Source: Carpediemonas membranifera BICM | Taxonomy: Eukaryota; Protista; Fornicata | Assembly: GCA_019828565.1 (NCBI GenBank) | Contig: JAHDYR010000007.1 | Location: 231,600 to 295,599 of the forward strand | DNA: 64,000 nt | Reading direction: 5' to 3' | Shown here: piece after piece, positions 16,232 through 61,399 of the stretch | Layout of the letters: every line of letters begins with the position of its first letter | Numbering within the stretch: the stretch's first letter is position 1 | Translations under genes and position numbers: made by a program | The notes under the pieces: generated by a model | Database searches by the model: none | Told to the model about the DNA's origin: nothing | The model's input: the letters and a program-made list of their open reading frames with translations, nothing else

Positions 16232-16243
16232 GACAGTGATCAC

Positions 16244-16296
16244 TGTGGTATGGATAGAACAGCTAGCGAAAGAGGTTTAATCAATTGATTGGGACA
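16244..16296 (-). repeat. Gypsy B 5' LTR (53 bp)
   Basis: Identical to 11773-11825. Confidence 0.95.
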
Positions 16297-18856: not shown

Positions 18857-18874
18857 TTGAGAGAGTATTAATAC

Positions 18875-19059
18875 TGTTCTCGCGAACGAAGACAACAAAG
18901 GCAAAGCTGGCGAAGAGTGATTTAAAATTCGACACAAGGGTGTCGAATTTGACCGGGCGAGACCAAAACACAGGAGCGAATCAACCCCAGGGAATTACAT
19001 ATTGCATATGTAACACGTAAACACCCCGGGCAACAGCTCGATACTCCTCGCTTATAACA
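18875..19059 (-). repeat. Gypsy A 5' LTR
   Basis: Direct repeat of 10759-10943; followed by palindrome AGTATTAATACT. Confidence 0.95.
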
Positions 19060-19365
19060 GCAGCAAAGGGACAAACCGATGCGAATGTCGCAACAATAAT
19101 CGTTTGCGATGGCAATTCCACTAGTTCTGTACAACTTCCGCCTCTTCTGGAAGGATGGAGAACGTTTCGCTTAGCGAAACCTTAATCTTGCCACCAACCA
19201 GTGACAGAACCATCCTAGTGGATCCTCTTGCTCTATAAAGCGACTATCTGCTGATCATCTCTAGTACCGAGACTGGCATCAGCCTCGGACAACTAGCCCT
19301 TCCTTGAGGGGATGACGGGGCTCCCGTACCCGTCGTGGCTTCTAATGCCTATTTTCATGGGAGCT

Positions 19366-19956
19366 TTACTTGCTGGGTTCTGTACCCATAGTTAGTCGTT
19401 TCAGTCTGTCTGCGGCCAACTGGCGGTCCTTGCGCACAGCCTGGGCAATGTAGGGTCTAAGGCTAGCCGCCGAGGCCCATCCTCCGAGGAAGGCAATGCT
19501 CTCAAGCGGCGTGCCGTGTAGAGCCTCAGAAGAGGCTCCGCCCTTACGGAATGAGTGGAAAGTGACACCTGGCCCAAAGGCCGACGTGATGTATCGTCTC
19601 ATCTCTCTCTCGGAACACTCGTGCTTAAGGCTTAGACCCTTAGGTGTGACTCGGCGCCACAGCCGATCACTGGGGCTCTTCAGGCGCGCTGCGAGCCACT
19701 TCAAAGCCGTTGCGACGTCAAAGTGGTCTGATGCCAGCTCCGAAAAGGCTATGAACCTGTCGAAGTTGATCTGGCCGACCTTAGTTGTCTTAGCGCGCAC
19801 AGTCACTCCAGAGTCATTTGCAGAGATGTCCTCCTTTGTCAGAGAGAGTACTTCGATGCCTCTGGCAACACATAAGAAGCAAGTGGAACCAAAGACAACC
19901 GCCTGCCAGTTCTCTACTGATCTTGCATCATAAACAGATGCAATTGCCGCCCGCAT
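19366..19956 (-). CDS. DIRS-c tyrosine recombinase catalytic domain
   Basis: R-K-H-R-W-Y catalytic residues recognisable. Confidence 0.85.
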   Translation of the reverse strand: MRAAIASVYDARSVENWQAVVFGSTCFLCVARGIEVLSLTKEDISANDSGVTVRAKTTKVGQINFDRFIAFSELASDHFDVATALKWLAARLKSPSDRLWRRVTPKGLSLKHECSEREMRRYITSAFGPGVTFHSFRKGGASSEALHGTPLESIAFLGGWASAASLRPYIAQAVRKDRQLAADRLKRLTMGTEPSK

Positions 19957-21600
19957 CTCCTCAGAAGATATTGGTCTTGCCCCACCGGTAGCCCGCGTGT
20001 TGTTAGAGACCTTCTTTGCCGCTCTTCAGGAGAAGCTCGGTGAGCTCGGGGTTCAGCGGAATCATGGGATTCTGAGGGCTCAACTGCTGCTGTAGTCGTC
20101 TGAGGGCCAACCTTCCTCCCTCGCAGGTGTCGGAGAAGTACTGGAGCTGGCCTAGGATCCTTAGTGCTTCGTCGGCATCGACTGAGCCTCTTTGCAGAGC
20201 CTGTACTATCTTTGCCTCGTACTTCTCCGCCTTCGTAACGTCCAGTGAGATGAGGTTGGCTGTCGCAGAGCGTCTATGATGAGACCGAGGTACGATAGGC
20301 GAGTTGTTGGGCTGAGGACAGACTTCTCCATGTTGACGATTATGCCCATTCTCCGGAGGAGGAGCAGCATGGGCCTGACCTGGCTCTGAAGGTGATACCG
20401 ACTCTGGCAGTGAATGAGGAGGTCGTCGAGATATACGACCACCATCACATTGAACTGCGAGGCAATCACCTTCGCCACCTGCACCATCGTTGTCTGGAAG
20501 ACGAAAGGGGCGGGGCGCCACCCAAAGGGCAGGGCGCGAAACATGTAAGCGGCGCCTGGGACAACGATGCCCAGCAGTTTCTGGTCTGCCTCCCGTATCG
20601 GCAACTGATGGCAACCGGACTTGAGATCTAGCTTGATCATCCAGCTGTCGGGGGCAAGTGATGATACGGCCCTCCGCACTCCGTAGAGGCGGAATGTCCT
20701 GTTCTCCTGTGAGACTGTATTGAGGCGCCTGAGATCGTGGATGGGGCGAACATCCTCCAGCCCCTTCGGCACGACAAAGAGGGGTGCGGCATGCTGTAGA
20801 GTCTCCCTCGACACACGTTGGAGTACCCCGGATTGCTGAAGCTTGTGGATCTGCTCCATCACATGTGGACCGACCCGGGTCTTGATGATCGGCAGAGACT
20901 GGCGGTCTGACGCACGTACGTCTATCGGAACTCCGTGTCTCACCCACTCCACGACTTCTGATGAGACACCCAGCTGCTCCCATAGCTGGGCGTCTCCTAT
21001 TGTTGGGAATTGTTGTTGCCGCTGGGGCGGCGAAACCCCCGGCCCGACTGGCTGCCTTGACTGTTCTGGCTCTGAATGCTGTGGTGCACTCTCTTGAGTT
21101 TCTTCTTAGCCTGCCCCCTCATGTCCACCTCGACCTGCAACGACTTGGCCCGGATGTCTTCGAGGTTTGAGAAGTTCGCCATATTTCTCTTGAGAGCCGC
21201 CTCCATGTAAGTGGCAGTGGAGTGCTCGTATACATCCTTGCAGCGTAGGACTTCGAAGCGTGTAGCCACAGCAATCATGATCTCGTCCACGTCTGTAAGA
21301 GCACCGAGCGCCATCTTCTGGTACAGCTCACGAAGGAACTTAGCTTCATCAGCGAGACCATGACCCTTGGGCATGTCCCAATAGCCGTCGAACGTAGCGT
21401 CGCGCATCACATCTAGCTCCTCCTGGAGCTCGGCGTTCTTCTCTTCCGCCTGCTTGAGTGAGAGGCGCATAGCACTGAGCTCCTTGCTCAGATCAGCCTT
21501 AAATGCCTCGAGTTGTTCGGCCACGGCCTCGTTCATGAGCACTGACGTCTCGACACCATTGTGTCGAATTTGGACGGATACATAGCCTAAATAAAATCTG
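19366..21600 (-). mobile_element. DIRS-like retrotransposon, family c, internally deleted (RH/MT and YR N-terminus missing)
   Basis: gag 20997-21536 (DEAKFLRE) and RT 20003-20990 (IHDLR, YLDD) jump at ~20010 into YR 19366-20000 (ARGIE, HSFRKG, GGW, PY). Confidence 0.85.
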
Positions 21601-21639
21601 GTCGGTTGCTTCCGACACACGCCGGAACCTGCCAGCTGC

Positions 21640-23900
21640 GCTCCCTAGCGCCACTTAACTTCGAGCACGAAGCTAGGTACACTAGGACATGATGTGGGGT
21701 ACGAGCACGAAGATCCCCGAGATCCAAGTCCTCGGATGGGCAGTAGGTTGCGTCGGAGTCACAGCTCTGAGGACTATCGGGACTATCTGGCGAATAGTAG
21801 CAGGATCCATCGTCAGTACTCGTCGACCCATCCAGTCCTTGGGCCCCGCTCCCTGCCACACCGAAGTGACGGGACCCCACTCCTGAAGGAGTTGCTCTGT
21901 GATCTGGGAGCTGTCCTCCACGGCAGGTATGCCACGAGAGAGACGATCGGCGGTGATGTTCGTCTCTCCTGGGGTATGCTCCGCCTTGATAACGAGATTT
22001 CTTGTCTTGGCGAGACACTCGAGCTCCTGAAGGAGCCTCATTGCCGCGCCTGGAGCCCGAGCGGAACCATGCTTGTTGATCCATCCTTTTGCAGAAGTAT
22101 TGTCTGTGAAGAGGGTCAAGACCCTGCAGGTGTCGGAAGGCGGAAGGTGCTCGACGGCTCTGACCAGGGCGTACAACTCTCGGACATTGATGGACTCGGC
22201 AGAGATGTCGGGTGGGAATGAGCCTTCCAAGAGCTTGTCCACTGGGGACCCATAGATGATAGCACCCCACCCCCAGTCGGAGGCGTCGGTTGCTACGCAC
22301 AGATCGAGGCTCCAAAAGAAAGAGGGCTGCGAATGGTCGAGTCGGTGAAGAGTCGAGCAGAGTGAGCCAGTCCTCCAACTCGCTTTGGGAATCGTCGTCC
22401 AGCTTGATGGCATGGCCGGGGTTGAAGGTTTGTAGCTTTCGCAGCTTCAGCATGGTGTTGAAGGTGTAAGCGAAGAACCCCAGACGACCGATGATGCTTG
22501 CCCAGTCCTTGGCAGTGACAACCTTCGTGGCTAAGGCATTGGTGATTATCTCTCGATACTTGACTGCCTTGTCCTCTGGGAGACTGTGTCGAGAATCACA
22601 CCGAGGTACTGCATTGACTGCACGGGAGTAAGGCAGGACTTTTCCAAGTTTGGGATGATGCCTAATAGCTGTAGTGTACGTATGATCTCGGGGCCGACTT
22701 GACTCAGGTGAGCAGCGCTGGCGTGGGCAAAGATGAAGTCGTCTAGGTAGACAGACACTTTGACGCTGAACCTTAGTGCTAAGATCCTTGCAGCCTGGAT
22801 CATGACGAGCTGGAAATAGTAAGGCGCGGCTGTCCAACCGAACGAGAGACCTGTGTAGTGGTAATCCTGGCCATTGGGTAGCACGACCCCCAGCAGCGGA
22901 GCATCGGATGGTCGAACACCGAGCTGGTGATAGCCGTCGCTTAGGTCGACCTTGATCATGTAGTCTCCATGCTCGAGCAGTCCAACTGCACGCCGCACTC
23001 CGAACAGGCGGAAGACCGAGCGGTTTCTGGTCTTGGCGTTGAGGCACCTGAGGTCGTGGATAACCCGAATGTCTTCCGGACCTTTTGGCACAGAGAACAA
23101 TGGCGCTGAGTGACAGAGCTGACCTATGGAGGACTTGACGAGAGCGCCGGATGCGAGCTGGAGCTTGATCTTGGCTAAGATCTTGCGATCGATGCGAGCT
23201 TGCGGACGTGGAGGAGGTGGCTTGCCAGTGAGATGTATCGGCACGCCGTGACGGAGGAGAGCAACAACCTCTGCAGAGGCCTTGAAACTTTTCCAGACAT
23301 ACCACCTTGCGTTCATAGATGGGAGCCTGTGAGTTACTGGTTGAGACGACGGCGCTCTCTCTGGCCCCCACGCTGGTAGTTTGGGCGGCGCATAGTACCC
23401 TTGACCTTGGCTTTTGCGACCAGGCGATCGACTGAGGCACGGCTCTTGGGCGGTGAGGAGTTGAAGAGGTTCTTACAACGCTCGGCTGTGGCGTCATCCC
23501 AAGAGTCCTTGAGCTGTAGGAGCTGTTGGCGCGCATAGATCTTGATTCGTATGGCTGGTATTGAGGACAAACGGCCAGCAACGAGGTCTCTTTCGAGCGT
23601 ATATAGCCAGCGAGCCTCATCGCGGAGACCGAAGCGTGACGGGAGGCTTGTGAGAGCTTCGAATGGGTTGAAGAAGTCGATGTCGTCTTCAAGGTGGTCG
23701 TTGTCCTGAGATTGGGGTTCCTCTTCGCTCTCTTGCGGGTTGTCGTCTTCTTCGCCTTCGTCGCAGGCGATCTGGCCGTTGAGGCGATCAGTAAGTGCCT
23801 GCACTTGTTCTTGGAGTGTCTTGAGTGCTTCTGGAGTGACCGCGGCTGCATCTGCCTGCGGATCACTCATTCTCTCTACTCTGCAATAGTCCTGATTTGT
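21640..23900 (-). mobile_element. DIRS-like retrotransposon, family d, 3'-truncated (no YR)
   Basis: gag 23334-23870 (RDEARWL), RT 22546-23316, RH 21682-22413 (TDASDWGWG, ADRLSRG), frameshifted. Confidence 0.85.
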
Positions 23901-24588: not shown

Positions 24589-24690
24589 TGTTGGTTCATC
24601 AATAGATTATTTAATAGTCTTGAGTCGTCCAGCTCGACACATGGGTGTCGAGCTCTATTCTTTGTAAAGCTTTGTTCTCACGAACCCACA
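24589..24690 (+). repeat. Gypsy C 5' LTR
   Basis: Direct repeat of 39118-39219. Confidence 0.95.
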
Positions 24691-24705
24691 GTAACGTTAC
24701 TTACA

Positions 24706-32584: not shown

Positions 32585-32649
32585 AGCAGGGTAAAGTGGT
32601 ATTCTTTGAGAGTGATAGTGACAGTTGTGAGTTCTTTTCTTTTAATCCA

Positions 32650-32750
32650 ACCCTGGCTCCCACCCAGGGTCCGGCATTAGCTGAAATGCACTGCCGGTGG
32701 GCTGTGGCGGCAGCCAAAGGGGGGTCACGCCAATGCGCCCCCTCCTAAGT
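32650..32750 (+). ncRNA. Conserved structured RNA element in the LINE 2 inter-ORF region
   Basis: Aligns with 50563-50666 (minus strand) with compensatory base changes in two stems. Confidence 0.7.
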
Positions 32751-39117: not shown

Positions 39118-39219
39118 TGTTGGTTCATCAATAGATTATTTAATAGTCTTGAGTCGTCCAGCTCGACACATGGGTGTCGAGCTCTATTCTTTGTAAAGCT
39201 TTGTTCTCACGAACCCACA
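39118..39219 (+). repeat. Gypsy C 3' LTR
   Basis: Direct repeat of 24589-24690. Confidence 0.95.
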
Positions 39220-39874: not shown

Positions 39875-41778
39875 GCGCGTTGGAATCTCGCCGGGGCGTT
39901 CATCAGGCCGAATGGACATCTGGTGAACTCGCAGTATGCGTCTGGAGTGACAAAAGCGGTTTTGGGGATATCTTCCTCGTGCATCCGCATCTGGTAGTAG
40001 CCTTGTCTGAGGTCTAGGCCTGCAAAGTATTTGCAGCCTGATGCTCGGTCTACAAACTCGCGCGCGTTAGGCAGGGGGAAGTTATCCCTCACTGTCTTGG
40101 AGTTTAACTCCTTGTAGTCAATGCAAAGACGGATCTTGGTCGATCCTTTGTGGCCCTGCCTGACTACTACGATCGGCGAGCTGTACGGCCCAGTCGAGTC
40201 CTGGATTATCCCGTCTCGCCTGAGTTGTTCTAGCTCTGTCGACACCAGGCCTTGGGTCACTGGGTCGAGTCTGCGAGCGCGGCATTGTACAATTGACCAC
40301 TCGTCTATCAGTTCAATCGACATGGGTTCCAGTCGAGACCCTTCCTTGGGTAGTTCTTCCTCGAAGATATCGTCAAATGAGTTGATTATCTCGAGAATCT
40401 CGGGTCGGATCTTCGACTCCGGGACGTTGACACCACAGGAGTCGTCGGTTGTCGCCATGTTTGCGTCCTCCGTGAGATATTCATGGTAGAACGGCAGCCA
40501 GTCCTCGTCCTCCTCAATTGAGGAGAGCTTGTGCAGGTTAAGGTTGAGTGTGCCATCGCCAATGAGTGCGAGTGACCTCAGCAAGTCACACCCGATGAGA
40601 ACCTTGAAGAACTCACCGGGGAGTACGTAGTACTTCCATGTAACCTCCAACGGTGTGATACCTAGTGCTGGGAATGCTGCCTTAAATGTGACTGCTTGAT
40701 CTGTCACGAGGGAGCGTCCGTCTCCTAGCGTGACCTTGATCTTTTCCTCGAGAGAGGTCTGCACTGCGTCCTTGGGTAGGGTACGTAGTGCCTTCGAACT
40801 AATGAAGCTTCGGCTTGCACCAGTGTCTACAACGAACGAGTAAGTTTTGCCTTTTACAGTAGCGGGGGTCGTCAGTGGACCCTTCCCGCCCTTCTCGTTA
40901 GTCGACGCGCTGTCGGCGTTGTTGTTCTCGCTGTAGCGGGGGTGCTTATCGCATCTGAAGTCCGTGTGGGGACCGCCACAGGGGCGCGACGGCTTCTTGG
41001 GTTCGTCGGCCGGCAGGCGCTTGGCCGCGTCCGGGCGGTACTGGGCCTTCCTGGCCTGGGCCGGGGCCTTGGGTCCGCCGGCCGGGGTTTGCGAGAGGGG
41101 TTGATCATGGTCATACGCCCTAGCAGCCTGTCCTCGAAGGTCTTGACGTTGTGGAGAGCAAGCAAGGTCTGTGCCTTCTTGCGGAATGCTGTCGGGTTCA
41201 GGGACTCCCTGAAGAGCCGTGCAGCCAGCTTATCAAAGCTTGCGAGCAGTTCGTCGGCATTGGGGTTGTCGTCGATGGGGTCCAAGAACCCTTCTGGGTC
41301 TGGCGTCTTGGAGTAGAGCTCGATGCGCTTGCGGAATGCTGCCGCTTGTAGTCTCGTGCCAGCTTCGAAGTTGCGTGCGGTGCTCGGCACCATGGGGAAA
41401 CGAAGGTCTTGGAGCTCTTCGACGAGTGCTAGGATGGAGTGGGGAAGGAGCCGCTGGCGACACCATTCGGTGAAGTTCTTGAGAGTGTAGTTCTTGTCGG
41501 ATGTGTCTATGCCTTCGGCCTTGAGTTCGAGGGCAAATGACTCCTCAATGAGGACGGACAGTGGGATGCTTGGGTTTTGTATAGTAAAAATCGTTGCTCG
41601 GCGCTCAAACTCCTCAAGAGTCTCTAGTGTTAGATTTGAAGGAGAAAGCTCAGGAATTTGAACAGTTACCGACATCAGCACAGCTAATACTAGTATTGTC
41701 GGTTGAAATTATTTACAGTAAACCGCAGCGCGGTAAAAGTGGTCAAAACTGGACGGAGCAGTTTATAGACCGGTGACA
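39871..41778 (-). mobile_element. Gypsy F, 3'-truncated: 82-bp 5' LTR, gag, PR, RT N-half
   Basis: Putative LTR 41697-41778 (TGTC...GACA), palindrome AATACTAGTATT, gag ATG at 41675, VDTGASRSF, LDLRQGY, PFGLMNAP. Confidence 0.8.
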
Positions 41779-44512: not shown

Positions 44513-44645
44513 CTGTGGTGGTCATAGACCACACTAATCATTTATACAGTTTAAGCCATTTATTGGCACAAGGGTTTTCTCTTCTTCTTTCCCTGTAAAA
44601 GCATTCTCCGCATTAGCGAGGCACATTAACGTTAATTCCCCTCAA

Positions 44646-47600
44646 ATGCTGAAGAAATCCGATCCCCCGTTGCTGAAGTCGCCAGATCTGAACGAACTGT
44701 TCATCTTTGTGGACAAGTTCAACGATTACCGCGCCTTAGGGGGCAAGCGAGACATTGAGAAGCTAATCGACAGCGAGGTTCGGGAGATGGTGACAGCAAT
44801 CCTACCAGCGGACGATCTTGACGACGCGGAGGAAGAGATCTCTCTCCTCCTTAATCAACATCATCGTGCCGCTCGCTCCAGAGCCCAGAAGGACCTCAAG
44901 ATCATCAAGCGCCTAGGACGCGCTCTCAGACCTACTCAAGAAGTCAACAAGCTCCGTCTCTTTAGAATCACCGCCAAGGACTTCTCCCCTATCGAAGTTG
45001 CTCGAGTCAACAAGAAGTTCCGTATTACCATGGCAGTCGTCCAACCCGAGTTCCCCCTCGAGACACTACGCGACATATACGTTCGTTGTTTCAAGTTCGG
45101 ATCCAACCAGACGATGTACCGCATCAAGGAGGTGATCCAGGACATGTCGCTAGAAGATGCCATGCCGCGCGTTCTAGCCCTATCCAGAACAGTCCAAGAG
45201 AGCACCGCGATCGCCAACGCGTTCCAGGACAAGCCGTCCAACGCCGAGCACCACCACACGAGCCGTAACTCCCACCGACGCAACGATCGCAAGCCTCAGT
45301 CACGTCCCACCGAAGACCGTTCGCATGCTATCAGACCTGAACACGCGTCGACTAAGCCTATCGACAAGAAGGGCAGACGTGATCATTCACAGTTCACTTG
45401 CTATAACTGTGGTGGTAAGGGTCACGCCGTCTACGAGTGTAAGAAGCCCAAGAACAAGTGTCAGAAGTGCGGGAAGAGCGGACACCTTGACAGGTTCTGT
45501 AAATCCCCACAGTACTTGTCCTTGTTCTCGATGACTTCACACAAACGCAAAGATAGCCTACCTCTGTGCAAAGTTAAGGTCGAGGGTCGAGACGTCGTTG
45601 CCTTGATTGATTCGGGAGCCAACTGCTCCACTATATCCCCCAAGCTGACCAAGGGTATGACGCGTATATCAGATGAAGAGCGAAGCGTGCGTACAGCCAA
45701 GGGAACTATACAGTCCCAAGGTTCCGTGCAAGGGAACATCAAACTCATGCCGTCAGCCTTTACACCTAAGGCAGTGTCCTTCAAGCCGGAGTTGATTGTG
45801 CTAGATACTGAGTTCGACGTCGTCCTGGGGTACCCCCACCTTGTCGAGCTGGGAATCCTCCCCGACGTGAACGTAGAGTCAGGGGAATACTCGGACGAAG
45901 TCCAGGTCCCCGAAGCTTTCAAGCACAACGCTGCCATTTTTAGTCTATCCGACCAGTCGACCAAGAGTCAAGCCGAACTGATCAAGAGGTTCTCCGATCT
46001 ATTCCAAGACCGGGACGAACCTAGCAGGCTAGAGCCGTACGACCTCGTTCTGAAGGACGATCGGGTCGTGAACGCCAGACCTTACTATGTACCCCCAGCG
46101 AAGATACACGTCGTGAGAGAGCACATCGACACGCTGCTAGCCAAGAAATATATCGAGGCCTGCCAGTCACAATACGCTTCCCCAGCTATGACTGTGCCTA
46201 AGAAGGGAGGCAAGTCGCGTTTCGTAGTCGATTTCCGCCGTATTAACGAGCTTACTGAGCCGTTCGACTACCCCATCCCTCGTATCGACGAGGTGCTGTC
46301 ACAGCTCGCAGGACAGAAGATCTTCGCGACTCTAGACCTGTCGTCCGGGTACCACCAGATCCCTTTGACAGAACGATCAAGACCCCTGACTGCATTTACC
46401 ACCGTACTAGGGCAGTATCAATACCGACGGATGCCTTTCGGGCTGCGCAACGCAGGAGCTCACTTCCAGAAGGCCATGGAGCGCGCCTTCGCCGGGCTCG
46501 TGGGCAGCTCATGTTACATTTACATCGACGATATTATTGTCTTCGGCAGCGACGAGGCCGAATATCTCGCGAACCTCGAAAGAGTCCTGGACCGTGCGCG
46601 TAAGGTCAAGCTCCAGCTCAATCGCGAGAAATGCCAATTCGGCAGGCAGGAGGTCGAGTTCTTAGGTTGGGTTGTCAATGATGGGCAGGTGAGCATCGCA
46701 CCCAGCCGTGTAGACGACATCGCAAATCTCCAGATGCCGACATCCATCAAGGGCATGCAGGGCCTAGTAGGATTCCTCAACTATTTCCGGGATCACATCC
46801 CCCATTTTGCGGAAATCGGACACCCGTTAATCAAAGCTATGTCCGGTCACACAAGTCTCGGCCTGACCGCCCAGCAGGAGGCCCTCGATAAGCTCAAGCA
46901 GAGCCTTACCTCCGCTGACGCCCTAGCAATTTTCGACGCCACGAAGGAGCATTCTATAATGACCGACGCCTCGGGAGTGGGGTACGGCGCAGTCCTATTG
47001 CAAGAGGGCAAGCCTGTCTGTTACATGTCGAAGGCCTTCAACGCCACACAGTCTCGTTGGTCAACGATTGAGAAGGAGGCGTACGCCATTGTGGCGGCCT
47101 TGCAGCGCTGGCGCAAGTTCCTTGCCTGGGGACCTTTCTCCATACTCACTGACCACCGAAACCTTACCTTCATGTACCGTAGCATCAACCCGAAAGTCAG
47201 GAGGTGGGCCGATGCCATTTCCGACTTGGACTTTGAGATTAAGCACGTCGCCGGCCTGGACAATGGAGCCGCAGATGGTCTGTCCCGTGTGTTTACTATG
47301 TTCACTCGCAAAGCTACGACCGATGAGATTGAAGAAGCACACACCACCGCCGGCGCCCATCTATCTCGACGACTAACGACCGAGAAGCTTAGAGCCGAAG
47401 GGTTGTCGGTGTCGAGAGCCGCAGTCGACCAGGTGATTGCAGCTTGCCCGGTGTGCCAAGTCCTCGAGAGACCCCACGTCGATACACCGGATGGTCTGCA
47501 TACCGCCGTTGATGAACCGTTTAAGCGAGTAGCCATCGACACCTTAGGTCCGTTCCCCAAGTCGCAGGGGTTCACGCACATCTCCGTCATCATAGATATG

Positions 47601-48581
47601 TGTAGTAGGTGGACCGAGTTGGTTCCAGTTACAGGTACGACTGCGCAAGCCGCAGTTACGGCGTTCGTTAATAACTGGGTCTTACGCTATGGCTGCCCCG
47701 AGGTCTTACAGACTGACGGCGGGCCCGAGTTTAACAATCAGCTCATGAAGTCCCTGGCCGACGAGATGGGTTTCCACACCCATGTTACGACTCCACATCA
47801 CCCGCAATCTAATGGCATCGTCGAACGGGCCAACAGTGGAGTTCTCAAAATCTTGAAGGCCAGAAAGTTCCATTTCCGGGACGCGGACTGGGTCAAGCAC
47901 TTACCTGTCGCACAATTTATCGTCAATTCGACGCCCAGGATACCCACTCACCTCTCACCATCCGAGATCATACTAGGTGTCAACATCAGGATCTCGAACG
48001 AGATCATCATCTGCACCCACTCGACTAGCGCCAGAATACAGGACAGACGCGCGGCGGCTGGCCAAGCCATCCAGCTAGCGAAGGCTAGAATTCAGGCAAT
48101 GAGAGAGGACGCTCTCGCAAACGCCGCATCGTCACGTCAGGAGTTACTGTGCCGGTTCGTGTTGGTCAAGTACCCAGCCAGACCTCCCAACAAGCTGATG
48201 CCAGGATGGCGAGGGCCCATGCGACGGGTCAGTGCGGTTAAGCAAGATGGCGTGACGGTCGCCTATGAAGTTCAGGACCTCAACCAGGGAAGCCAAGGCA
48301 AGATATTGAAGGTCGACGCCTCGCGCGTACGCAGATTTAACCCTGGCAATCTATCCGAGCGAGAGATCAAGGACTTGGCCGCCACGGCGAACGATGAGTG
48401 GGAAGTGGACCGTATTTCCAAATCGCGAGGGAACGGAACACGAACCAAACGCGAATACCGCGTTCACTGGTCTGGTTTCGAGGACGAGGAGGCGACATGG
48501 CAGGATTGGGACTCCGTCAAGGACCTGGAAGCATTAGATATATATTTGAAGTCTGACCAAGCCAAACTGGACGGTCTATAA
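44646..48581 (+). CDS. Gypsy D gag-pol polyprotein (2x CCHC, PR, RT, RH, IN, chromodomain)
   Basis: CYNCGGKGH, IDSGA, LDLSSGY, YIDD, TDAS, IDTLG, TDGG, SNGIVER, WEVDRI...VHWSGF. Confidence 0.96.
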   Translation: MLKKSDPPLLKSPDLNELFIFVDKFNDYRALGGKRDIEKLIDSEVREMVTAILPADDLDDAEEEISLLLNQHHRAARSRAQKDLKIIKRLGRALRPTQEVNKLRLFRITAKDFSPIEVARVNKKFRITMAVVQPEFPLETLRDIYVRCFKFGSNQTMYRIKEVIQDMSLEDAMPRVLALSRTVQESTAIANAFQDKPSNAEHHHTSRNSHRRNDRKPQSRPTEDRSHAIRPEHASTKPIDKKGRRDHSQFTCYNCGGKGHAVYECKKPKNKCQKCGKSGHLDRFCKSPQYLSLFSMTSHKRKDSLPLCKVKVEGRDVVALIDSGANCSTISPKLTKGMTRISDEERSVRTAKGTIQSQGSVQGNIKLMPSAFTPKAVSFKPELIVLDTEFDVVLGYPHLVELGILPDVNVESGEYSDEVQVPEAFKHNAAIFSLSDQSTKSQAELIKRFSDLFQDRDEPSRLEPYDLVLKDDRVVNARPYYVPPAKIHVVREHIDTLLAKKYIEACQSQYASPAMTVPKKGGKSRFVVDFRRINELTEPFDYPIPRIDEVLSQLAGQKIFATLDLSSGYHQIPLTERSRPLTAFTTVLGQYQYRRMPFGLRNAGAHFQKAMERAFAGLVGSSCYIYIDDIIVFGSDEAEYLANLERVLDRARKVKLQLNREKCQFGRQEVEFLGWVVNDGQVSIAPSRVDDIANLQMPTSIKGMQGLVGFLNYFRDHIPHFAEIGHPLIKAMSGHTSLGLTAQQEALDKLKQSLTSADALAIFDATKEHSIMTDASGVGYGAVLLQEGKPVCYMSKAFNATQSRWSTIEKEAYAIVAALQRWRKFLAWGPFSILTDHRNLTFMYRSINPKVRRWADAISDLDFEIKHVAGLDNGAADGLSRVFTMFTRKATTDEIEEAHTTAGAHLSRRLTTEKLRAEGLSVSRAAVDQVIAACPVCQVLERPHVDTPDGLHTAVDEPFKRVAIDTLGPFPKSQGFTHISVIIDMCSRWTELVPVTGTTAQAAVTAFVNNWVLRYGCPEVLQTDGGPEFNNQLMKSLADEMGFHTHVTTPHHPQSNGIVERANSGVLKILKARKFHFRDADWVKHLPVAQFIVNSTPRIPTHLSPSEIILGVNIRISNEIIICTHSTSARIQDRRAAAGQAIQLAKARIQAMREDALANAASSRQELLCRFVLVKYPARPPNKLMPGWRGPMRRVSAVKQDGVTVAYEVQDLNQGSQGKILKVDASRVRRFNPGNLSEREIKDLAATANDEWEVDRISKSRGNGTRTKREYRVHWSGFEDEEATWQDWDSVKDLEALDIYLKSDQAKLDGL

Positions 48582-49704: not shown

Positions 49705-50553
49705 ATTCTGCACTTTTGGAACAATCGGTTTCAGGACGAAACCTAGAGCAGTAATAGGACGCCAAATCAAGCTAATTCATCTATTTACTAAGCGCTGTAG
49801 CCTATTAGCTCCATCGGAAGCCGATTGATGTTGTTAATGAAGTACGAGCGCGCCAGGAAAAATGAAAGGCCCAAAACTCGCCAACGAAGGCCTTTTGGAG
49901 CCTCTTTATGCCTTTTTCGGCGTCTGCGTAAGTTTCAGCGCAAATGGTACAGTACTTCTTCTTATTCTTCTAGACGCCGAGATCAACCCTCGAATTACTT
50001 AGAAGCATGCGTAACACGTAATATTTTTCGAGACACGGCCATATGAGGCCGTGGAGGGGCAGGGATAAGCCTCTATGAATACGGGTGAACCCTAGCCGTC
50101 CGTTTGACTGTCATTGACGTTGGTAAGTTCGGACCCTATATGCGGTTCATGAGGGCGGTGAAGCCCTGGTAAGACTATCTTAACACGTAACATAGCAATT
50201 GCTTACACAGTGGATCCACGTTATCATACACAGCTGTCGGGTTTTATTCCCATGTCACCGTTGGTGATACCATAATTCCGTATCGGAAGACCGCGGGTCG
50301 GGCGTTGCCCACTCCACTGCCAATGGAGTAGACCGTTGCATAGCTTGGGTGGCACCAAACTATAACACGGATGACCCTAGGCCAACCTAACCCCCGTAAC
50401 TCGTTGAGTGTCATGCCTATTACCCAGGCATGGAGGGGCAGTGTGGTGGTCATAGACCACACTAATCATTTATACAGTTTAAGCCATTTATTGGCACAAG
50501 GGTTTTCTCTTCTTCTTTCCCTGTAAAAGCATTCTCCGCATTAGCGAGGCACA

Positions 50554-50816
50554 GTTTGATTGACTTAGGAGGGGGCGCTTTGGCGTGACCCCCCCTTTGG
50601 CTGTCGCTGCAGCCCACTGGCAGTGCCCTTCTTGGCTAATGCCAGGTCCTGGGTGGGAGCCAGGATTGTGTTTGTAAAAGAATCTGATAATTTTCTGTTG
50701 TTGAAGAAGAATCTGTTTACCTGCTTACCCCACTCAGTCCTCCTCCTTGTCCTCCACATCCTCATCGCTGTCCTCTGAGTCCAGTAGCTTGATCAGCTTC
50801 TTGATCCTCTTGAGAG
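50554..50816 (-). mobile_element. Remnant of a third LINE (acidic ORF1 C-terminus plus inter-ORF RNA structure)
   Basis: ...LLDSEDSDEDVEDKEED* followed by a close homologue of 32650-32750. Confidence 0.6.
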
Positions 50817-53800
50817 TGTTTACGATAGGGTTCAAACCACCAATATACTAAAATGGTGGAAACTAAATATATCATATCTGGCGATATTGCTGGCATGGTG
50901 ATGCATGGTGGCAACAGTGCCTCCCTCTTATTTACTTTTTGAACGTTTTGGAGCTTTTCTTGCAATTATACATTTGTGTAAATGCGGAGCGTACGTTTTG
51001 GGGCGTCCGAGGGTTGGAATCTGTAATGACGCTATGAAAGCTACATTAAGCGATACTTGATGCATTGTCTTCGAAAAACGTATTATTAGGGCTCAACAAC
51101 GCTTCATTGGCGAGTTTCAGACAAGTTCTTCTTTGGCTGGTGAAAAATGGCGGGCGATGCTGCTAATCCTTGTCCTTTCATGCAAATAACAACATCAATG
51201 TCTTATAGAAGCTAGGTCTGTGTTGCTGCTGTGCTGTTAACGTTTAACTTCGTGTTCAAGCTCAGGATGCTGAGCGAAGTACTTATCGATGGCTTCAAGG
51301 GACCGAACGTCAGCCCACTGGAGCCACGAGGCTTCTTCAGGCTCAAAGCCCGCCCATTGTACCTCGAACTCATAGCCAGTTCTGGTCTTTCTGTGTGCTG
51401 AGACCTCTGAAACTATGTACTCGTCGCTGTCGGTGGCGGCTAGAGCCTTCAACTCCCTGAGCGTTAATTTGCCTTGCTCGAAGGGGTGGCATCTTGAAAT
51501 GTGGACTCGTAGTGACTTGTGAGTGTTGAGGTCCTCTACGATGAGGGTGGCAGGGGTGTTGAACTCATTGCACTCGTACCCCGTGACTCGTAGGGGACCG
51601 CGGTAGCGTGCCACTGTAATCGTTGGTCTGAACGATGGGTAGCTCAGTAGGATAAACTCTGGTAGAGCTGGAGTGACGCGTCAGTGGCCTGGGACAACAC
51701 AGCTTGTACGCGTTCAGCTTGTTTCGACTTAGCGGTGGCTATGGCGGCTTCGGCTGCTCGTCTTAGGTTGAGCGGGGTATCAGAAGCAGGGTTTCCCATG
51801 ATGAGTTCGCGGCCAAACACGATTTCGTTGGGGGAGACGCCAAGTGATGAATGCCTCGCTGAATTGAGGATGGCTTGAATGAAGGGGATGTGTTGCGACC
51901 AGCGATCGAGGTGCTTGATCTCTAATCTCGCCATCATGTGGGCGTTGATTTCACGATTAACTCTCTCAACTATCCCATTGCTCTGGTGATAAAAACCAGT
52001 TGTTAAACCAGTTGTTGACTACACACAAGGCTGCTTCTTCTGCCGTCGTTGACTTGATCGGGGTTATCTCAACATATCTTGAGAATAAGTCCACCATGAC
52101 CAGGACGTGTTGGAACTCACCATCGACAGGGTAGGGGCCCATCGTGTCAATGCACAGTGTGTCCATAGGGAATGGGGCCTGGAGGTTCAGGTCAAATGAC
52201 GACATCGGTCTGGTCGGTACTGTCTTCTGGCAGACAGGGCAGTGTGAGATGACGTCTGCGACAGATTGTCTCATGCTGGGCCATGCATGTCCGTCGGCGC
52301 GCAGCTGCTGTACTGTTCTGTTCACGGAGAGGTGCAGGCCGCCGAGGGTGTGATGTTCCTTGATGATGGCCGCATGGGGGTTAACTTCGGCGTTCGTTAA
52401 GGCTGTGTACACACGAGATAGGCCATCAGCGGCGCCATTTGCAACACCAGGCACATGGATCACGTCGTAGCTGAACTGTTCGAGGAGGAGGCTCCATCTG
52501 GCGACTTTGGCGTTAGCACTTTGGTGCATCCGAGTGAGATTGTGGTGGTCGGTGGCAATTGTGAAGAATGCCCATCGGAGATAGCGTTCGGCCTTTGACA
52601 GACAATATACTACCGCATACATCTCTTTCTCGATAGTTGGCCAGCGCTTTTGGGGGCCGGTGAGCGCCTTCGACAGATACATTAAAGGCTTGTTGTCCTG
52701 AAGTAGAACTCCTCCCACGCCATAGTCGGAGGCGTCAGTGATGAGTTTCAGCTTTGCTCTCGGGTTATAGTGTACAAGAGTTGGAGCTGATGTGAGGCGG
52801 GCTATAATGATATCGAATGCCGACTGGGACTCGGGTGTCCACGAGAACTGCTTGTGTTTTGTGATCTCGTATAGTGGAGCTGATATGGTGGCGAAGTCGC
52901 TCCCGAGGTAGTCATGGAAGAAGTTGACGAGACCAAGGAAGGAGCGAACTCCGGATACCGTTGACGGGGGTTTCATCTTCGTGAGGGCATCAATACAGGC
53001 TGGGTCGATCTGTTTCCCCTCTGGTGTGATGAGCCACCCTAAATGTTCAAACTTCCTGAGTCCAAACTGAGACTTGTCGAGGTTGACACGGAGATTCAGC
53101 TCTCGGCAGCGTTATAGTACCTCCTTGAGATTGGCAATGAGGTCATCCTCACACTCTGCGAAGATTACAACGTCATCTTGGTAAACTAGGCACTTGGAGT
53201 AGAGGAGGTTATCCAAAGCTGTGGTTCAATGGGTGTTGAACTTTTACAGAGGAGAAGACTCGACACGAGGGTGTCGAGGAGAAACTCCTTGACTATTAAA
53301 TATAACGTAAATCTGTGTAACTTTGGGTAGGACCCACAACACTGCCCCTCCATGCCTGGTATAGGCATGACAGAGAGACTTGACGTCAGCATTTCACCAA
53401 AGGCCTGGACGGTGCCACCCGACCGCCAACGGTGACTCATAGGGCTGGCAACCCCATGGCCTGAGTGCTTTCGCATCTAGCTGAACGAAATCAAAATGAT
53501 GGTATCATGATCTAACTGCGGTACCGCTATGTGAGCTCTGTTTCAAAAATGGTGAAACGTGACGGAGAGGCTTACCACTGCCCCTCCACGGCCTTCCTAG
53601 GCCGTCTTCACAAACCATATACGTGTTATATGCCATGCCATGTAATTCGAAGGCCAAGAACGATTGCTCTAGCAAACACTGCCAATGCTGAGCCCTTATC
53701 GCTCATGATCACACAGACGCCGAAAAACGTACTTAGAAGCTCCAATTCGGCTCCGTTGAGGAGTTCTGAGGCTTCTAATTTTCTGCGTCCAACTGTACTT

Positions 53801-53936
53801 GAATAACAACATCAAACTGACCGGAAGGAGCACTAGGAAGCTCCTAATGCCTTATTACCGACAATAAATGCATGCTTGAAGACCAAGATGACCTTGTTAG
53901 TTGTTCCTTCGACCGTTTCCGAGAAAAGTGCAGGAT

Positions 53937-55041
53937 ATGTCGCCGTCAACTCATTTGATGTCGGACAACACAGCCGTAGAGGCTGTTCTGAAGGAAATTC
54001 GTGCCAAAATCACCGAACTTGGTGATGACGATCTGGCTAGGCCACTTATTGTTGCCCATACGTCCGTTTGTCGTTCCCTTCGCGCTCAGAAGTATCGTGG
54101 ACGCAAGCGCATGATCACCGACAATCTGTAAGTAACAAACATCAACCGTGAGGTTATATAGTCACCGCGTGCAAGCCTCAGAACGCATCACTCGCACCCT
54201 GACGATGACGACTCTGATGCCCCACGACATCAAGGCCGAGGTTGCCCGACGCCTGGAAGGTTACACCAACTCCATCGAGCTGCCGCTCCAGCGAATCTTT
54301 GACGCTATTGAGCAAGGTCGTCTGAACGACGCAGCCGTAGTGCAGGACGTGAAGCTGACCCAGCAGGTCTTGGCTCTCGTGGCTCACTGCCAGGTCGCGC
54401 TTGCCGGTGTGAGGGCCCACCTCAAGCTCGGCAGGAAGCGCTTGACCGATGGCGACATCGTGTCGGCCGCGATCCGGGGCCGCGACATCACGCTGGGTGG
54501 GTCTTCACCCGGTAATGGTCACTACTCTGCAGCTCTCGTGGCGGCTGTGCGGACTGCCGGCGGGGTCAAGTCGGACACTACAGCGCGCGGATATCTTAAC
54601 CGCCTGTTGGTCCTCGTCCTCGCACCGGACTACTTCCGTGTCGCTGTCTACGGCATCAGCCGGCGCATCCCGGCTCCCAACGACTTCTGGGCAACCCTGG
54701 TCAGCCGCTTGTGCCACGACGGCTACCTGCCCGCCATTGGCGATGAGGCTCACTGGGAGCCGCTTCAGGTCTCTGATCCGGACCGCTACTACACTGTCAC
54801 GTGCGTAGTCCGTCACGAGTATCTGAAGACGACTTGTGGTCCCGGGTCTTTTGTGTTGATCCTGCAGTATGACGGATACTCGGGACTCAGCATCGTGTCC
54901 CTCAACGCTGATCTCTGCCTTGTCCGGTGTGTGCGAGAGTACTTGGCTGAGAACGCCCTTGAGCGCCACGCTGACCCGACTTGGTTGGTCGAGCTGACGG
55001 ACACGGAGGAGACGGAAGACGAGGAATCTAGCTCTGAATAA
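53937..55041 (+). CDS. Antisense two-exon gene of Gypsy E (exons 53937-54127 and 54162-55041; 356 aa), C-terminal chromo-like domain
   Basis: 34-nt GTAAGT...TAG intron at 54128-54161, same position and phase as in D; in-frame junction DNL^HRVQA. Confidence 0.85.
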
Positions 55042-55083
55042 ATCGTTTGTTCCTCGAGGAGACAGCTTCGATGTTGAGAAGTT

Positions 55084-58000: not shown

Positions 58001-59018
58001 CCTTGCCGTGGCAGAGCTTGGGGTCAATGGTTGCGCAGTCAGCGCCCGAGTCGAACAGGACGGACACGACTTGCTTAAGAATGCTAGCCTTGACGGAGGG
58101 GAGGACACTCTGACGGGAACCGAGAGAAAACACACAACGAGCTGAATTTACCTCAGAACGGCAGAATTCAGCTCGGTGGCCCGGCTTCTGGCACTTGGAA
58201 CAGGTTGTCTTCGGAGCAGGGCATCGGCGAGCGGAGTGACCGACCTTACCGCAGTTGAAGCACACGAATGGCTTCTTCTCGTGCTTGGGCTTGTCGATCG
58301 GCTTGCCTTTTGAGGGGGCTACGTTCGTGCGGTCAGGCTCGCGTCGATGAGGGTTCTTCGGACCGCTCCCCGTGTGCCGTGTATGGGAGGGCGTGGTGTT
58401 GGTACGCTGTGAGTCGGAGACCCCCGCAGCGCCGAAGGAAGCGATCATCTCATTGGACTCCTTGAGGTCGCGTGACATGACGAGGACATCAGCCATTGCG
58501 TCCTTGAGATCCTTGCGCTCCGTTGATTCTCTGACTCGATACATGATGCGACTGTTGTTGGGGAACTTGAAGCAGCGGCTGTACGTCTCCTTCAAGACGT
58601 CCTCGGGATCTTCGGGTTGAACGAGCTTCAAGAGCAGATTGAATCGGCGGTTCACTCGAGCAACCTCATCAGGCTCGAAGGACTTGGCGGGGACTCGGAA
58701 GAGCTGTAGACGCATGCTCGGGCGAGAAGGTCGAAGGGCAGCACCGAGGCGCTTGAGGACTCGTTCATCTTGGGCTGCGACACGACGTTTCTTACGGAGC
58801 TTCGCGGAGAGCAGGAGAGGAGTGTCTTCAACCTCTTCGTCGTCGTTAAGGCCTGCTAGCTCTGCTATGCTAGGCTCGATGAGGTCAATAACATCATCGC
58901 GGCCGCCTAAGGCGCGATGATCGTGGAGGTTATCCGCAAAGTCCAAAAGAGCGTCCATGGAGGACTTCTTCAGGAGAGGCGGATTCTTCTTCAGGCTTCT
59001 GTAAGTTTCCGTACCCAT
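55084..59018 (-). pseudogene. Gypsy E gag-pol (two frameshifts, ~56790 and ~56385)
   Basis: ORFs 56712-59018, 56273-56728 and 55084-56391, colinear with the D polyprotein. Confidence 0.92.
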
Positions 59019-61399
59019 ATGTTTTGGTAGTACTAGTACTGTGGTTCAATGGGTGTTGAACTTTTACAGAGGAGAAGACTCGACACGAGGGTGTCGAGGA
59101 GAAACTCCTTGACTATTAAATATAACGTAAATCTGTGTAACTTTGGGTAGGACCCACAACAAAGCTGTCTCCATGGCATATTGGAAGTGGCTGCCAGCCT
59201 GCTTTAGGCCGAAGGGGAGCCGAGAATAGCGGAATCTACCAAGATGTGTGGTGAAGGTGGTGAAGTCGCGTGAGGAAGGGTCGACAGCGATCTGGTGATG
59301 GCCGGATGAGAGATCAATGGTGGCGAAGAAGCGCTTCCCAGCTAGATGATCGAGTGTTTCATCGATCCTAGGTAGAGGGAAGTCGAAGTCCACGGTCTCT
59401 GCGTTCAGGCGATGGTAGTCTACGCACATGCGTGTCTTGGCTGTGTCCTTCTTGCTGACTATGACAACGGGGGATCCCCATGGGCTGGAGCAGCGTTCAA
59501 TGATGCCTAGGGCAAGGAGCTTGGTGACGTGTGCTTCATTCTCCTGCTGCTTCCACGTAGGGGCCGGATATGGACGTGAAGAGCATAACTTGTAGCCATC
59601 TTTGAGCTGTAGGGAAAATGGCTTCAGTTTTGACGGCTCAAGGGCTAGGTCGCCAAAAACATCGTTAAACTCCTCGATAATTGATGTGTATCGATCAGGT
59701 ACCACACCAGCGCATGATATAGACCGGTCTAACGAATCAACTGAGGCTTCGATGTGTTCACGAGGTAAAGTCGGGTTAATAAGGAGATCGATGAGGCCGA
59801 GCCTGCACATTGCTGGGAAGCCAATAATGACATCGAATGGGGATTCCTCTGGGACATAACCATCGAACTTAGTGGACAGGGAGTAGTGGAATATCTCATT
59901 AGGTGGGAGTGTAAGGTCAACCGACGCAGACCCCAACGTCTCCACCCACTGGTTGTTGGCCAGTTGCAGACGATGGCTGTGGAATGAGATCTTACTGACA
60001 ACGTGGCGGGCCAGTAGGTTGTGTGACGATCCTGTGTCAAGGAGTACGGTCACCTTGGTATTTCCTATCACACCGGCGCATGAAAGGACAGAGGAATTGA
60101 GAAGGGCAGAACAGCAACACGTCGCAGGATTTATACGATCCTTTGAAGTTTCGTCTGCGCGCTTCTTACGGCAATCGGTGTGTGTGTGGCCGACCTTCTT
60201 GCAGTATGCACACAAGGGGAGGCCTTTTTTCTTTGCGAAGCACTCGTCCTCGGTATGGCCCTTCTTCTGGCAGTAGGTGCATTTGGGCTGAGGCTTCGGG
60301 TCGGACTGGGTGTTGGACCTCTTAGCAGGCAGGGACTCGGCTGGGCGGGCGGATCTCATTACAGGGGCTCTCTGGGTGAAGGGAAGGGCTATCTTCAAGG
60401 CACGCTCCACGGCATGTGCGTGTTGCACCGCGAGTGCAAAGGTGTCGTTAAGAGACTTGTCCTTTGTGATGCCAGCCAGTTGGTCGTGGAAGGCGTGGAT
60501 GTGGGAGAAACCACGGATGAACGCTTCGCGAACTGTGTCGGTGCCGACATCGGCCTCAGGTATGATCTCCAAGAGTGTTCTGAACAGTTGGACGAAGCTG
60601 ACGACGTTGGCGGGGCTGCGGCCCTTCGCCTTACGGCTGAAGGCATCTGCCTTCGAGAACTGGTCCTCGGGGGTTACATGGGAAAAGACGGCCTCGCGAG
60701 CGGCCTTGTCCTTGTTCTTCTTGCGGAGCTTGTTTCTTGACTTTTCATCGGCGTCATCAGGGAAGTCGGGATCGGGGACCGAGGAGAGTCGGAAAGGGTT
60801 GCCTGACATTTTGAGTTCGCGGAGGACGTTCTTAGAAAGTAACTTATGAAAGTGTACTTTCGAATGACGAAGGGAATAGTCCGCGAGCTCCATCATGAAC
60901 GACAGGACTGCGGTAAGCGATAGGATGCTTAAAACAGGGCCACCAGCGCTAGGAGGAGCGTTTTTGCGACCTTTCCCGTCCGGGTAGTGAAGTCCGTTGT
61001 GTCATCTCTGGTGAAGATCATGGCAACGTCCCTTGTGGGAATAACCGCATCTGCTGTGGCTCTGATGCAGTCACATTCGTCCGGTGTGGCCATTTGCTTG
61101 CCCAGTGGCGTTAACGACTCCTTGATCCCATTTGGGGTGGTGTTTGCGCAATCCAAGGCGTCTGGGACGCTTTGGGAGCTGTTCGAGGTCATTGTGTGGC
61201 GTGGTCTCGAAAAGTCCCGGTTATTGATTCGGCCGAGATCAAGGCCCTCCTTCATGGGGGGAGGTGATGGGGTGTGTTGCTCGCTAGCTGGTGCCGTCTG
61301 GCTCGTTCGGTGGGGATGTGCTACGTACTTGGAATAGTTCGCCTGGACTCTGGGGTAGAACACAAATTTGGGGGGCCCTGGGCGGAGAACCCTCCACCC

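Follow-up and report, generated by a model that had tools for sequence, protein, structure and literature searches.

Palindromes at the 5' LTR end in place of a tRNA primer-binding site in chromodomain Gypsy elements of Carpediemonas membranifera, and their possible role in self-priming

How reverse transcription starts in LTR elements without a tRNA site is an open question for GalEa CHS, SM-Tcn1 and Tcn2-5, and it is raised again by a 64,000-nt stretch of the Carpediemonas membranifera BICM genome (contig JAHDYR010000007.1, positions 231,600 to 295,599; hereafter the window). Six elements in the window (A to F) carry a palindrome of 12–14 nt in the usual position of the host tRNA site, on the minus strand in A, B, E and F and on the plus strand in C and D. 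[quoted passage not shown]

Positions within elements are counted from the last base of the 5' LTR, taken as 0. Element A (minus strand) has a 185 bp 5' LTR (18875..19059), a 3' LTR with 3 mismatches to the 5' copy (10759..10943, TSD CTGC), and the palindrome AGTATTAATACT (18864..18875), which runs from the last LTR base to +11. Element B (minus strand) is inserted in the pol gene of A and is bounded by a 53 bp 5' LTR (16244..16296) and an identical 3' LTR (11773..11825, TSD GACCC); its palindrome ACAGTGATCACTGT (16233..16246) spans -2 to +11, the centre being 1 nt nearer the LTR than in the other five, which span 0 to +11. B has a single intact gag-pol ORF of 1473 aa (11810..16231, minus strand; RT, RH, IN). 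Element C (plus strand) has a 102 bp 5' LTR (24589..24690), the palindrome AGTAACGTTACT (24690..24701) and an identical 3' LTR (39118..39219, TSD CCCG); an empty target site was found near 3540, and the gag frame closes after 87 codons. Element D (plus strand) has a 112 bp 5' LTR (44514..44625), the palindrome ATTAACGTTAAT (44625..44636), a single intact gag-pol ORF of 1311 aa (44646..48581; CCHC, PR, RT, RH, IN, chromodomain) and an identical 3' LTR (50442..50553) with no TSD seen. Element E (minus strand) is inserted in the RT region of a further Gypsy copy, G, and has a 122 bp 5' LTR (59040..59161), the palindrome AGTACTAGTACT (59029..59040) and an identical 3' LTR (53220..53341, TSD GCTT). 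Element F (minus strand) is truncated near 39875 and carries the palindrome AATACTAGTATT (41686..41697); no second LTR was found for it within the window, and its LTR end was therefore placed from CA, palindrome and gag ATG. LTR pairs are thus present in five of the six elements, all with TG..CA ends and a purine tract preceding the 3' copy, and four of the five pairs have a TSD. Each of B and D has an intact single ORF and two identical LTRs, so the palindrome is carried by recently mobile copies. Two further Gypsy copies, G and H, could not be scored for the palindrome, their 5' LTRs being absent from the window. In X1 and X2, apparently a single data set whose run type is guessed, one contig starts at 44630, inside the D palindrome, and by calculation from bin depths the last part of the D LTR is covered by no contig; this edge was not used as evidence because contigs cannot show transcript starts.

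By LTRs, TSDs, purine tract and domain order, the palindrome elements are Ty3/Gypsy LTR retrotransposons. The order gag-PR-RT-RH-IN was read with Pfam, which found all of these domains in D and RT, RH and IN in B. Pfam Chromo was matched at the integrase C-terminus of D and E; a chromodomain profile built for the clade also matched A, B (weak by Pfam, clear by this profile), C, G, H and the outside locus L071, F being truncated. The C-terminal integrase chromodomain that marks chromoviruses is present, and the palindrome group sits in an open 88-row fork of a tree that has no named reference chromoviruses and among whose proteins no Tf1, sushi or Tcn1 sequence was identified. A likeness to chromodomains seen by eye in antisense ORFs of C, D and E was discarded after 0 matches with a 116-sequence profile, none in Pfam and no usable Atlas match.

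The palindrome had been said to include the terminal A of the LTR and to end at +11; this stands for the five elements whose LTR ends are fixed by a partner copy, and for F it depends on the end placed as above. A TGG site is absent after all six 5' LTR ends (again with the F end so placed), and the gag ATG follows the palindrome within 1–10 nt in all six, at +19 (A), +13 (B), +16 (C), +21 (D), +22 (E) and +22 (F). Perfect palindromes of at least 12 nt number 22 in the whole window. When the 40 nt after each LTR end were permuted (40,000 trials per site), a palindrome arose in 61–146 trials per site, and multiplication of the probabilities gave a joint chance of about 1e-16.

Relatives were found by alignment scans, and eight loci from other assemblies carry the same feature, making 14 sites with the six of the window. 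The LTR end is fixed by a partner LTR at 7 of the 14, and the perfection of six of the eight outside sites is partly due to selection, because a scan for perfect palindromes had supplied them, the exceptions being L079 and L123. The earlier reading that symmetry rather than sequence is conserved was extended to the whole clade: all 84 palindrome pair cells are Watson-Crick with no G-U, while the 12-mers share from 2 to 12 of their 12 bases (mean 6.3). All five inner pairs vary yet stay paired (9 distinct 12-mers among 10), and the central four bases are self-complementary at every site (7 kinds). The edge of the symmetry is sharp, the pair 0/+11 being A-T in 10 of 10 and the pair -1/+12 Watson-Crick in 2 of 10, and +11 is where the palindrome stops in each of the two centre classes (10 of the 14 sites). 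The sites are A+T-rich and lie just before gag. At 12 of the 14, +1..+11 has its exact complement in an 11-mer whose first base is an A at the LTR end (0..+10 at 10 sites, -2..+8 at B and L091); L093 and L209 are off this pattern, with the complement at +2..+12 and LTR ends that are not independently fixed. No other exact complement of the site was found anywhere in the six window elements.

This geometry resembles that of Tf1, in which the primer is the RNA's initial 11 bases, cut by RNase H between 11 and 12 (PMC7175516, in the part consulted). Like Tf1/Tf2/Tj1 and the Tf1/sushi/Tcn1 chromoviruses, as far as the excerpts used describe them (PMC7175516, PMC4600332, PMC6317226, bioRxiv 10.1101/2022.12.06.519325), the elements here are chromodomain Gypsy elements without a tRNA site, and at 12 of the 14 sites their sequence geometry would fit an 11-nt PBS immediately behind the LTR, for which the element's own RNA contains an exactly complementary 11-mer. 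The Tf1 site is described as not palindromic (PMC5445492, in part), and the Tf1 primer is, in the same excerpts, the 5' end of the same transcript, lies inside the LTR and pairs in cis within a three-duplex structure. The only exact complement here overlaps the site itself, so that, unlike in Tf1, full pairing in cis is not available. That no complement lies in the element's own LTR was borne out in the six window elements (best Watson-Crick match 2–4 nt), and a Tf1-type LTR partner was likewise absent at all 14 sites, where the best Watson-Crick run was 2–5 nt, or up to 9 nt with G-U (L091).

A palindromic site that includes the LTR terminal A is not wholly new, since the same kind has been published for Copia, and the view that nothing of the sort had been described holds only in part: for the fungal GalEa Copia elements, the sections consulted of Donnart et al. 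2017 (PMC5445492) report a palindrome (CHSeq1) that takes in the 5' LTR's final A and stands where the PBS would be, mention its likeness to a DIS and propose a PBS role, but give no priming mechanism. The elements here agree with GalEa CHS, as presented in those sections, in having no PBS, a palindrome with the LTR final A right after the 5' LTR, and no complement in the LTR, and in B and L091 the palindrome shares its centre with that of GalEa (10 nt). GalEa is, however, Ty1/copia, whereas the elements here have Gypsy domain order; its palindrome measures 9+1 nt and its sequence is mostly kept (85% of families have one of two forms, by the same sections), whereas those here are 12–20 nt and covary freely. 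Additional file 4 of the same paper (PMC5445492) lists GalEa variants and may bear on the extent of covariation. The second GalEa arm, CHSeq2, which has one mismatch and lies 12–41 nt downstream in those sections, is absent here: the best matches within +12..+90 had 2–4 mismatches of 9 at all 14 sites. In Kojima 2024 (PMC10886601), the portion consulted has no occurrence of 'palindrom'. A literature search, with most subscription papers and Repbase outside its reach, found no paper that describes a Gypsy PBS as palindromic. For diatom Gypsy elements, Repbase entries are said to note the lack of a tRNA-like site and the use for self-priming of a 12-bp palindrome with which the internal part begins, in remarks that reportedly carry neither test nor mechanism.

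RNA folding predictions gave 0 to -4.0 kcal/mol for the isolated hairpin and -10.1 to -22.2 kcal/mol for the duplex over the 14 sites, a predicted dimer gain of -7.6 to -16.6 kcal/mol. Scrambling of the centre weakened the predicted dimer by at least 2.6 kcal/mol at 10 of the 14 sites and shifted it by about 1 kcal/mol or less at the other four (F, L074, L093, L209). In monomers with 80 nt of context, the outer palindrome pairs were predicted as a hairpin at 13 of the 14 sites (probability 0.34–0.99; none in F), often atop a longer U5-leader stem.

Judged from sequence and predicted energies, there is about an even chance that the palindrome elements start reverse transcription with an approximately 11-nt piece of their own RNA taken from a second RNA molecule. 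Two element RNAs would pair through the palindrome inside the particle, and the RNase H of the RT would cut the RNA duplex, as in Tf1, giving a 3'-OH opposite +1. The 5' end of the primer would lie at the LTR-end A, set either by a short gag transcript starting there or by two-sided trimming; a transcription start downstream of the LTR does exist in Tf2 (PMC5341516, in part). Plus-strand synthesis would then copy the primer and minus-strand synthesis the template. A site inherited from both primer and template would need to be identical to its complement, and a mutation arising in one half could be mirrored in the other within one cycle. The 11-mer geometry, symmetry edge, covariation, self-complementary centre, predicted energies, mobile copies and tree (below) would all favour such priming in trans; against it were counted the in-context monomer hairpin at 13 of 14 sites, which suits priming in cis equally, the weak effect of centre scrambling at 4 of 14 sites, and the off-pattern L093 and L209. 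The intermolecular self-priming put forward in the preliminary description gains from predicted energies that favour the duplex over the isolated hairpin, but its single cut near +10/+11 would leave plus-strand copying of the primer without a stop, and the sharp symmetry edge at the LTR terminal A better fits a primer with its 5' end there.

It is rather unlikely that priming occurs by fold-back in cis, in which the RNA would be cut just after +11, the last U of the palindrome hairpin would pair with the LTR terminal A, and the RT would extend into U5 of the same molecule, a second packaged RNA supplying the missing PBS later. Such a scheme accounts for the included terminal A and the common end at +11, and an apical palindrome hairpin is predicted in the monomer at 13 of the 14 sites; Repbase notes reportedly label such 12-bp palindromes 'self-priming'. 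The cut hairpin, however, has 4–5 pairs, most of them A-U; its predicted stability is nil at 7 of the 14 sites and -4.0 kcal/mol at best, and folding of the monomer scores weakly (z from -0.2 to -2.8 against 100 mononucleotide shuffles). Self-complementarity of the loop at 14 of 14 sites also speaks against fold-back, although a perfect centre would be expected in cis as well if second-strand transfer needs one.

A retroviral DIS palindrome lies at a stem tip near the 5' end and joins two RNAs; it is set apart from the LTR edge, and a tRNA PBS is present as well. The Ty1 PAL, in the portion consulted of PMC4974528, is likewise a self-complementary sequence predicted at a stem tip near the 5' end, is able to join two RNAs and has been proposed to mediate Ty1 dimers; unlike the site here, it does not adjoin the LTR edge and comes in addition to a tRNA PBS. 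That the palindromes serve only dimerisation or packaging in this manner, while a protein, an unrelated RNA end or the like acts as the primer, agrees with the predicted dimer gain and yet is improbable: the abutment on the LTR, the +11 end in both centre classes and the absence of G-U would go unexplained, and no other primer site is visible in the 1–10 nt before gag in the window elements.

There is very little probability that the pairing partner of each site is a fragment of a host tRNA or some other small RNA, in the manner of the half-tRNAs of some Copia lineages. Anticodon-loop priming is known (PMC6317226, PMC10886601, both in part), and yeast tRNA-iMet contains a 12-nt palindrome (PMC4974528, in the portion consulted), but a different self-complementary host fragment would be needed for nearly every element (the six window sites all differ), and half-tRNA priming is reported only for Copia lineages in what was seen of a plant survey. 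No tRNA genes were found in the window. Equally slight is the chance that the palindrome acts as DNA (a dimeric-protein site or initiator element) or arises, without harm, as a by-product when cDNA ends are copied by snap-back, for although the absence of G-U and the A+T-rich sites directly ahead of gag fit a DNA-level role, a protein site would keep its letters, yet all five inner pairs change, and a by-product would still leave the elements without any primer site.

The palindromic site is restricted to one lineage. In a tree of RT-RH-IN, palindrome and TGG elements (13 and 24 rows) separate with 1 change and a support of 100, and none of 500 shuffles of the labels gave as few changes. A TGG-starting PBS is present at 0 of the 14 palindrome sites as against 31 of 40 two-LTR comparison loci by rule, with 5 more by eye. 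The clade also contains proteins of Carpediemonas, Andalucia, Dysnectes and Aduncisulcus; when viral and prokaryote-genome contigs were scanned with single proteins, no relative was returned. Palindromes at L163, L165, L095, L078 and L108 are not LTR junctions, lying inside coding sequence by context, and those at L003, L001, L109, L169 and L182 were rejected as LTR junctions with no LTR end or adjacent gag support.

There is somewhat less than an even chance that a deep protist lineage of chromodomain Gypsy elements uses a third priming route, neither tRNA nor Tf1-type cis, in which a second element RNA, possibly a short gag transcript from the LTR terminal A, would be cut to give an 11-nt primer, dimerisation and priming would be one step, and replication would rewrite both halves of the site together, the same solution having arisen independently in Copia (GalEa). 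If priming is intermolecular, genome dimerisation would be tied to the start of cDNA synthesis and the element freed from host tRNA. The intact, young B and D elements (very short LTRs of 53 and 112 bp), the free covariation and the Tf1-like 11-nt geometry make priming directly testable with a few point mutants. LTR finders that need a tRNA PBS will miss this lineage. Beside the palindrome group, the long-branched L047 has neither a palindrome nor a clear TGG site, and L082 is ambiguous, with two A+T-rich palindromes in the gap before gag.

The palindromes of the six Gypsy elements A–F (A, B, E and F on the minus strand, C and D on the plus strand) were all exact, as the preliminary description had them, and lie at 18864-18875 (A), 16233-16246 (B), 24690-24701 (C), 44625-44636 (D), 59029-59040 (E) and 41686-41697 (F). 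With the last LTR base numbered 0 and the first base past the LTR +1, the palindrome spans 0 to +11 in A, C, D, E and F and -2 to +11 in B; the end 11 nt past the LTR was thus recovered in every element, and the gag ATG, described as close behind, follows the palindrome at 1–10 nt. Both LTRs are present in five elements (A–E; 53–185 bp, 0–3 mismatches within pairs), with target site duplications (TSDs) in four of these; F is without a partner LTR. B and D carry intact single ORFs (1473 and 1311 aa) and identical LTR pairs, so copies that are young and apparently competent have the palindrome. The whole window contains 22 perfect palindromes at least 12 nt long. Shuffling of the 40 nt past the LTR end yielded palindromes in 61–146 of 40,000 trials per site, a joint chance of ~1e-16. 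The B LTR (16244-16296 and 11773-11825) is 53 bp, very short for an autonomous element, and contains another 12-bp palindrome, AATCAATTGATT; the TSD is 5 bp in B and 4 bp in A, C and E.

A 26-sequence alignment was used as query and 216 loci were fetched from other assemblies; 62 viral records were left out as caulimovirus-like (the author's label, from size and absence of integrase) and 154 loci were scanned. The palindrome recurred at eight of these relatives. Among the 40 non-circular loci having a flanking repeat pair, a palindrome stood at the LTR end in two (L079, L123), and TGG, the start of a tRNA-type primer-binding site (PBS), lay within 8 nt in 31 by rule and five more by eye, many of these TGG loci sharing one assembly and not being independent; the remaining two were assigned to neither class. 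No palindrome longer than 6 nt was found at the LTR end of the other 38. A perfect-palindrome scan upstream of RT added six loci (L071, L072, L074, L091, L093, L209), with CA or TA ahead of the palindrome and the gag ATG 12–34 nt from an LTR end that was itself deduced; the LTR start was confirmed via a partial 3' copy for L074, L091 and L209. The LTR end was set independently of the palindrome at only seven of the 14 sites (A–E, L079, L123), and all seven are perfect palindromes. The LTRs of L123 (277-479) and L209 (5262-5332) seem to end in TA, not CA (TGATG..CATTA and TAATG..CATTA), and their palindromes are longer, at 18 and 20 nt.

The idea that symmetry and not sequence is conserved was borne out. 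The ten sites sharing a common centre comprise nine distinct 12-mers with 2–12 bases in common (mean 6.3); two or three Watson-Crick forms are represented at every one of the five inner pairs. Across all 14 sites, 84/84 pair cells are Watson-Crick with no G-U, and the four bases at the centre form a self-complementary unit in each case. The pol sequences of D and E are 71% identical, and their palindromes differ in three of six pairs; L071 is the nearest relative of C, yet its 12-mer is identical to that of the distant element A. In an RT-RH-IN tree of 112 rows, a quick build with no bootstrap and no named Tf1, Tcn1 or algal references, all 14 palindrome elements fell inside a single 62-row group (SH-aLRT 83) that also includes proteins of Carpediemonas, Dysnectes, Aduncisulcus and Andalucia and in which no TGG element was found. 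Its 12 fetched loci comprise the eight with a palindrome, three without a 5' junction (L073, L101, L194) and one ambiguous (L082). After three short or long rows were dropped (F, L047 and the 5' piece of G, a further Gypsy copy in the window), palindrome (13 rows) and TGG (24 rows, a subset of the TGG loci, seven being circular contigs labelled by eye) were separated by one change with support 100, and 0/500 shuffles were as low. Judged from sequence, a covarying, lineage-wide palindrome in place of the primer site is real.

The known priming routes were compared with these sites. No TGG-starting PBS was found at them, as had been reported for the six, and the search for Tf1-type pairing gave a best Watson-Crick run in the LTR of 2–5 nt, in line with the earlier failure to see a complement there. 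The Tf1 primer is described as the first 11 RNA bases, released by an RNase H cut between bases 11 and 12 (PMC7175516); the proposed self-priming makes Tf1 the closest working likeness, but the palindrome elements lack the LTR complement that marks the Tf1 group. PMC6317226, PMC4600332 and bioRxiv 10.1101/2022.12.06.519325 deal with self-priming by Tf1/sushi/Tcn1 and TAR, and unexplained priming is mentioned for SM-Tcn1 (PMC2864245), Tcn2-5 (PMC7175516) and bivalve TRIMs (PMC6934838). The same kind of site occurs in another superfamily: fungal GalEa Copia elements are described as having no PBS and a 9-nt sequence palindromic together with the LTR final A (Donnart et al. 2017, PMC5445492). The authors report no Tf1-type partner, remark on the likeness to a DIS and judge no model fitting. 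The palindrome elements are not GalEa, however, and GalEa has a second arm, whereas the best candidates for one here had 2–4 mismatches of 9 at every site. No paper describing a palindromic PBS for Gypsy elements came up in the literature search. For diatom Gypsy elements, Repbase entries reportedly give self-priming through a 12-bp palindrome.

An exact complement of +1 to +11 lies at 0 to +10 at ten sites and at -2 to +8 in B and L091, in each case beginning at an A of the LTR end; in L093 and L209 it lies at +2 to +12. No other exact 11-nt complement was found on the sense strand of the six window elements, the next best having 2–4 mismatches. In both centre classes the primer and the site would each be 11 nt long, which explains their common end at +11, and since primer and site overlap, full pairing needs a second molecule. 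The primer would be a copy of the palindrome site, paired from a second RNA molecule. During replication of LTR elements, the plus-strand PBS is copied off the primer and the minus-strand PBS off the template. A single-stranded PBS at the cDNA end has been described for Tf1 (PMC11042837). With a primer copied from the site, the sequence would have to be its own complement and G-U would not be tolerated; a single mutation would give mismatches at two mirror positions, and repair could fix a compensated pair, so that fast letter turnover with strict symmetry would be accounted for. If a full partner genome were cut only once, plus-strand copying would lack a stop. Symmetry ends abruptly at the LTR terminal A (pair 0/+11 is A-T in 10/10, pair -1/+12 complementary in 2/10), suggesting that the primer begins there, which could come about through a short gag transcript starting at the LTR end or a duplex cut out on both sides; a transcription start beyond the LTR, on its downstream side, is described for Tf2 (PMC5341516).

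By predicted energy, the duplex (-10.1 to -22.2 kcal/mol) is more stable than the isolated hairpin (0 to -4.0 kcal/mol). Against a duplex in trans, the monomer in 80-nt context was predicted to fold the palindrome as a hairpin at 13/14 sites, and scrambling of the centre barely altered the predicted dimer at 4/14. Priming of reverse transcription in trans by a second RNA is accordingly given about an even chance. The 13 predicted hairpins would suit self-priming by fold-back in cis, which the low stability of the hairpin in isolation argues against and which is considered unlikely. That the palindrome is a dimer signal and nothing else appears more doubtful still, and pairing of the site with a host RNA, or a role of the palindrome at the DNA level, is very improbable.

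Several other features of these elements were recorded. In D (48624-49505, minus strand) and E (54136-55041, plus strand), an antisense ORF without Pfam or Atlas match lies in the interval separating pol from the 3' LTR; the two ORFs share 74% identity across 279 aa. Sequencing contigs, of presumed run type, omit a 34-nt GT..AG stretch just upstream of both (near 49479-49512 and 54128-54161), which looks like splicing. Minus-strand antisense ORFs also precede the 3' LTR of C (37231-38460) and of its relative L071 (L071:278-952); that of C showed no significant likeness to that of D. The LTRs of A, C and E, which do not otherwise align, share the inverted repeat TCGACAC-N4-GTGTCGA (10813, 18929, 24634, 39163, 53260, 59080), with a sole copy elsewhere at 21550; absent from every fetched locus, the repeat is possibly a host promoter element. 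The 66 loci L151-L216, from prokaryote genome bins, code eukaryotic-type Gypsy polyproteins and are most likely contaminating host contigs; one of them, L209, falls in the palindrome clade.

The window as a whole is a retroelement nest with at least eight Gypsy copies, LINE-like ORFs and several elements combining RT with tyrosine-recombinase-like frames. Among named proteins, the one closest to element D comes from Carpediemonas membranifera (54% identity), making a free-living protist of that sort the probable host. Overlapping RT/RNase H and tyrosine-recombinase-like frames at 3462-6076, 7532-10104 and 19366-23866 (minus strand; Phage_integrase match at 19369-20025) probably mark DIRS/Ngaro-type retrotransposons, a 655-bp piece of which is duplicated at 39220-39874. 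An unexplained dispersed repeat of 114–120 bp occurs as inverted copies, 83% identical, at 32637-32750 and 50563-50682, adjoining the D 3' LTR and directly preceding a LINE-like ORF.
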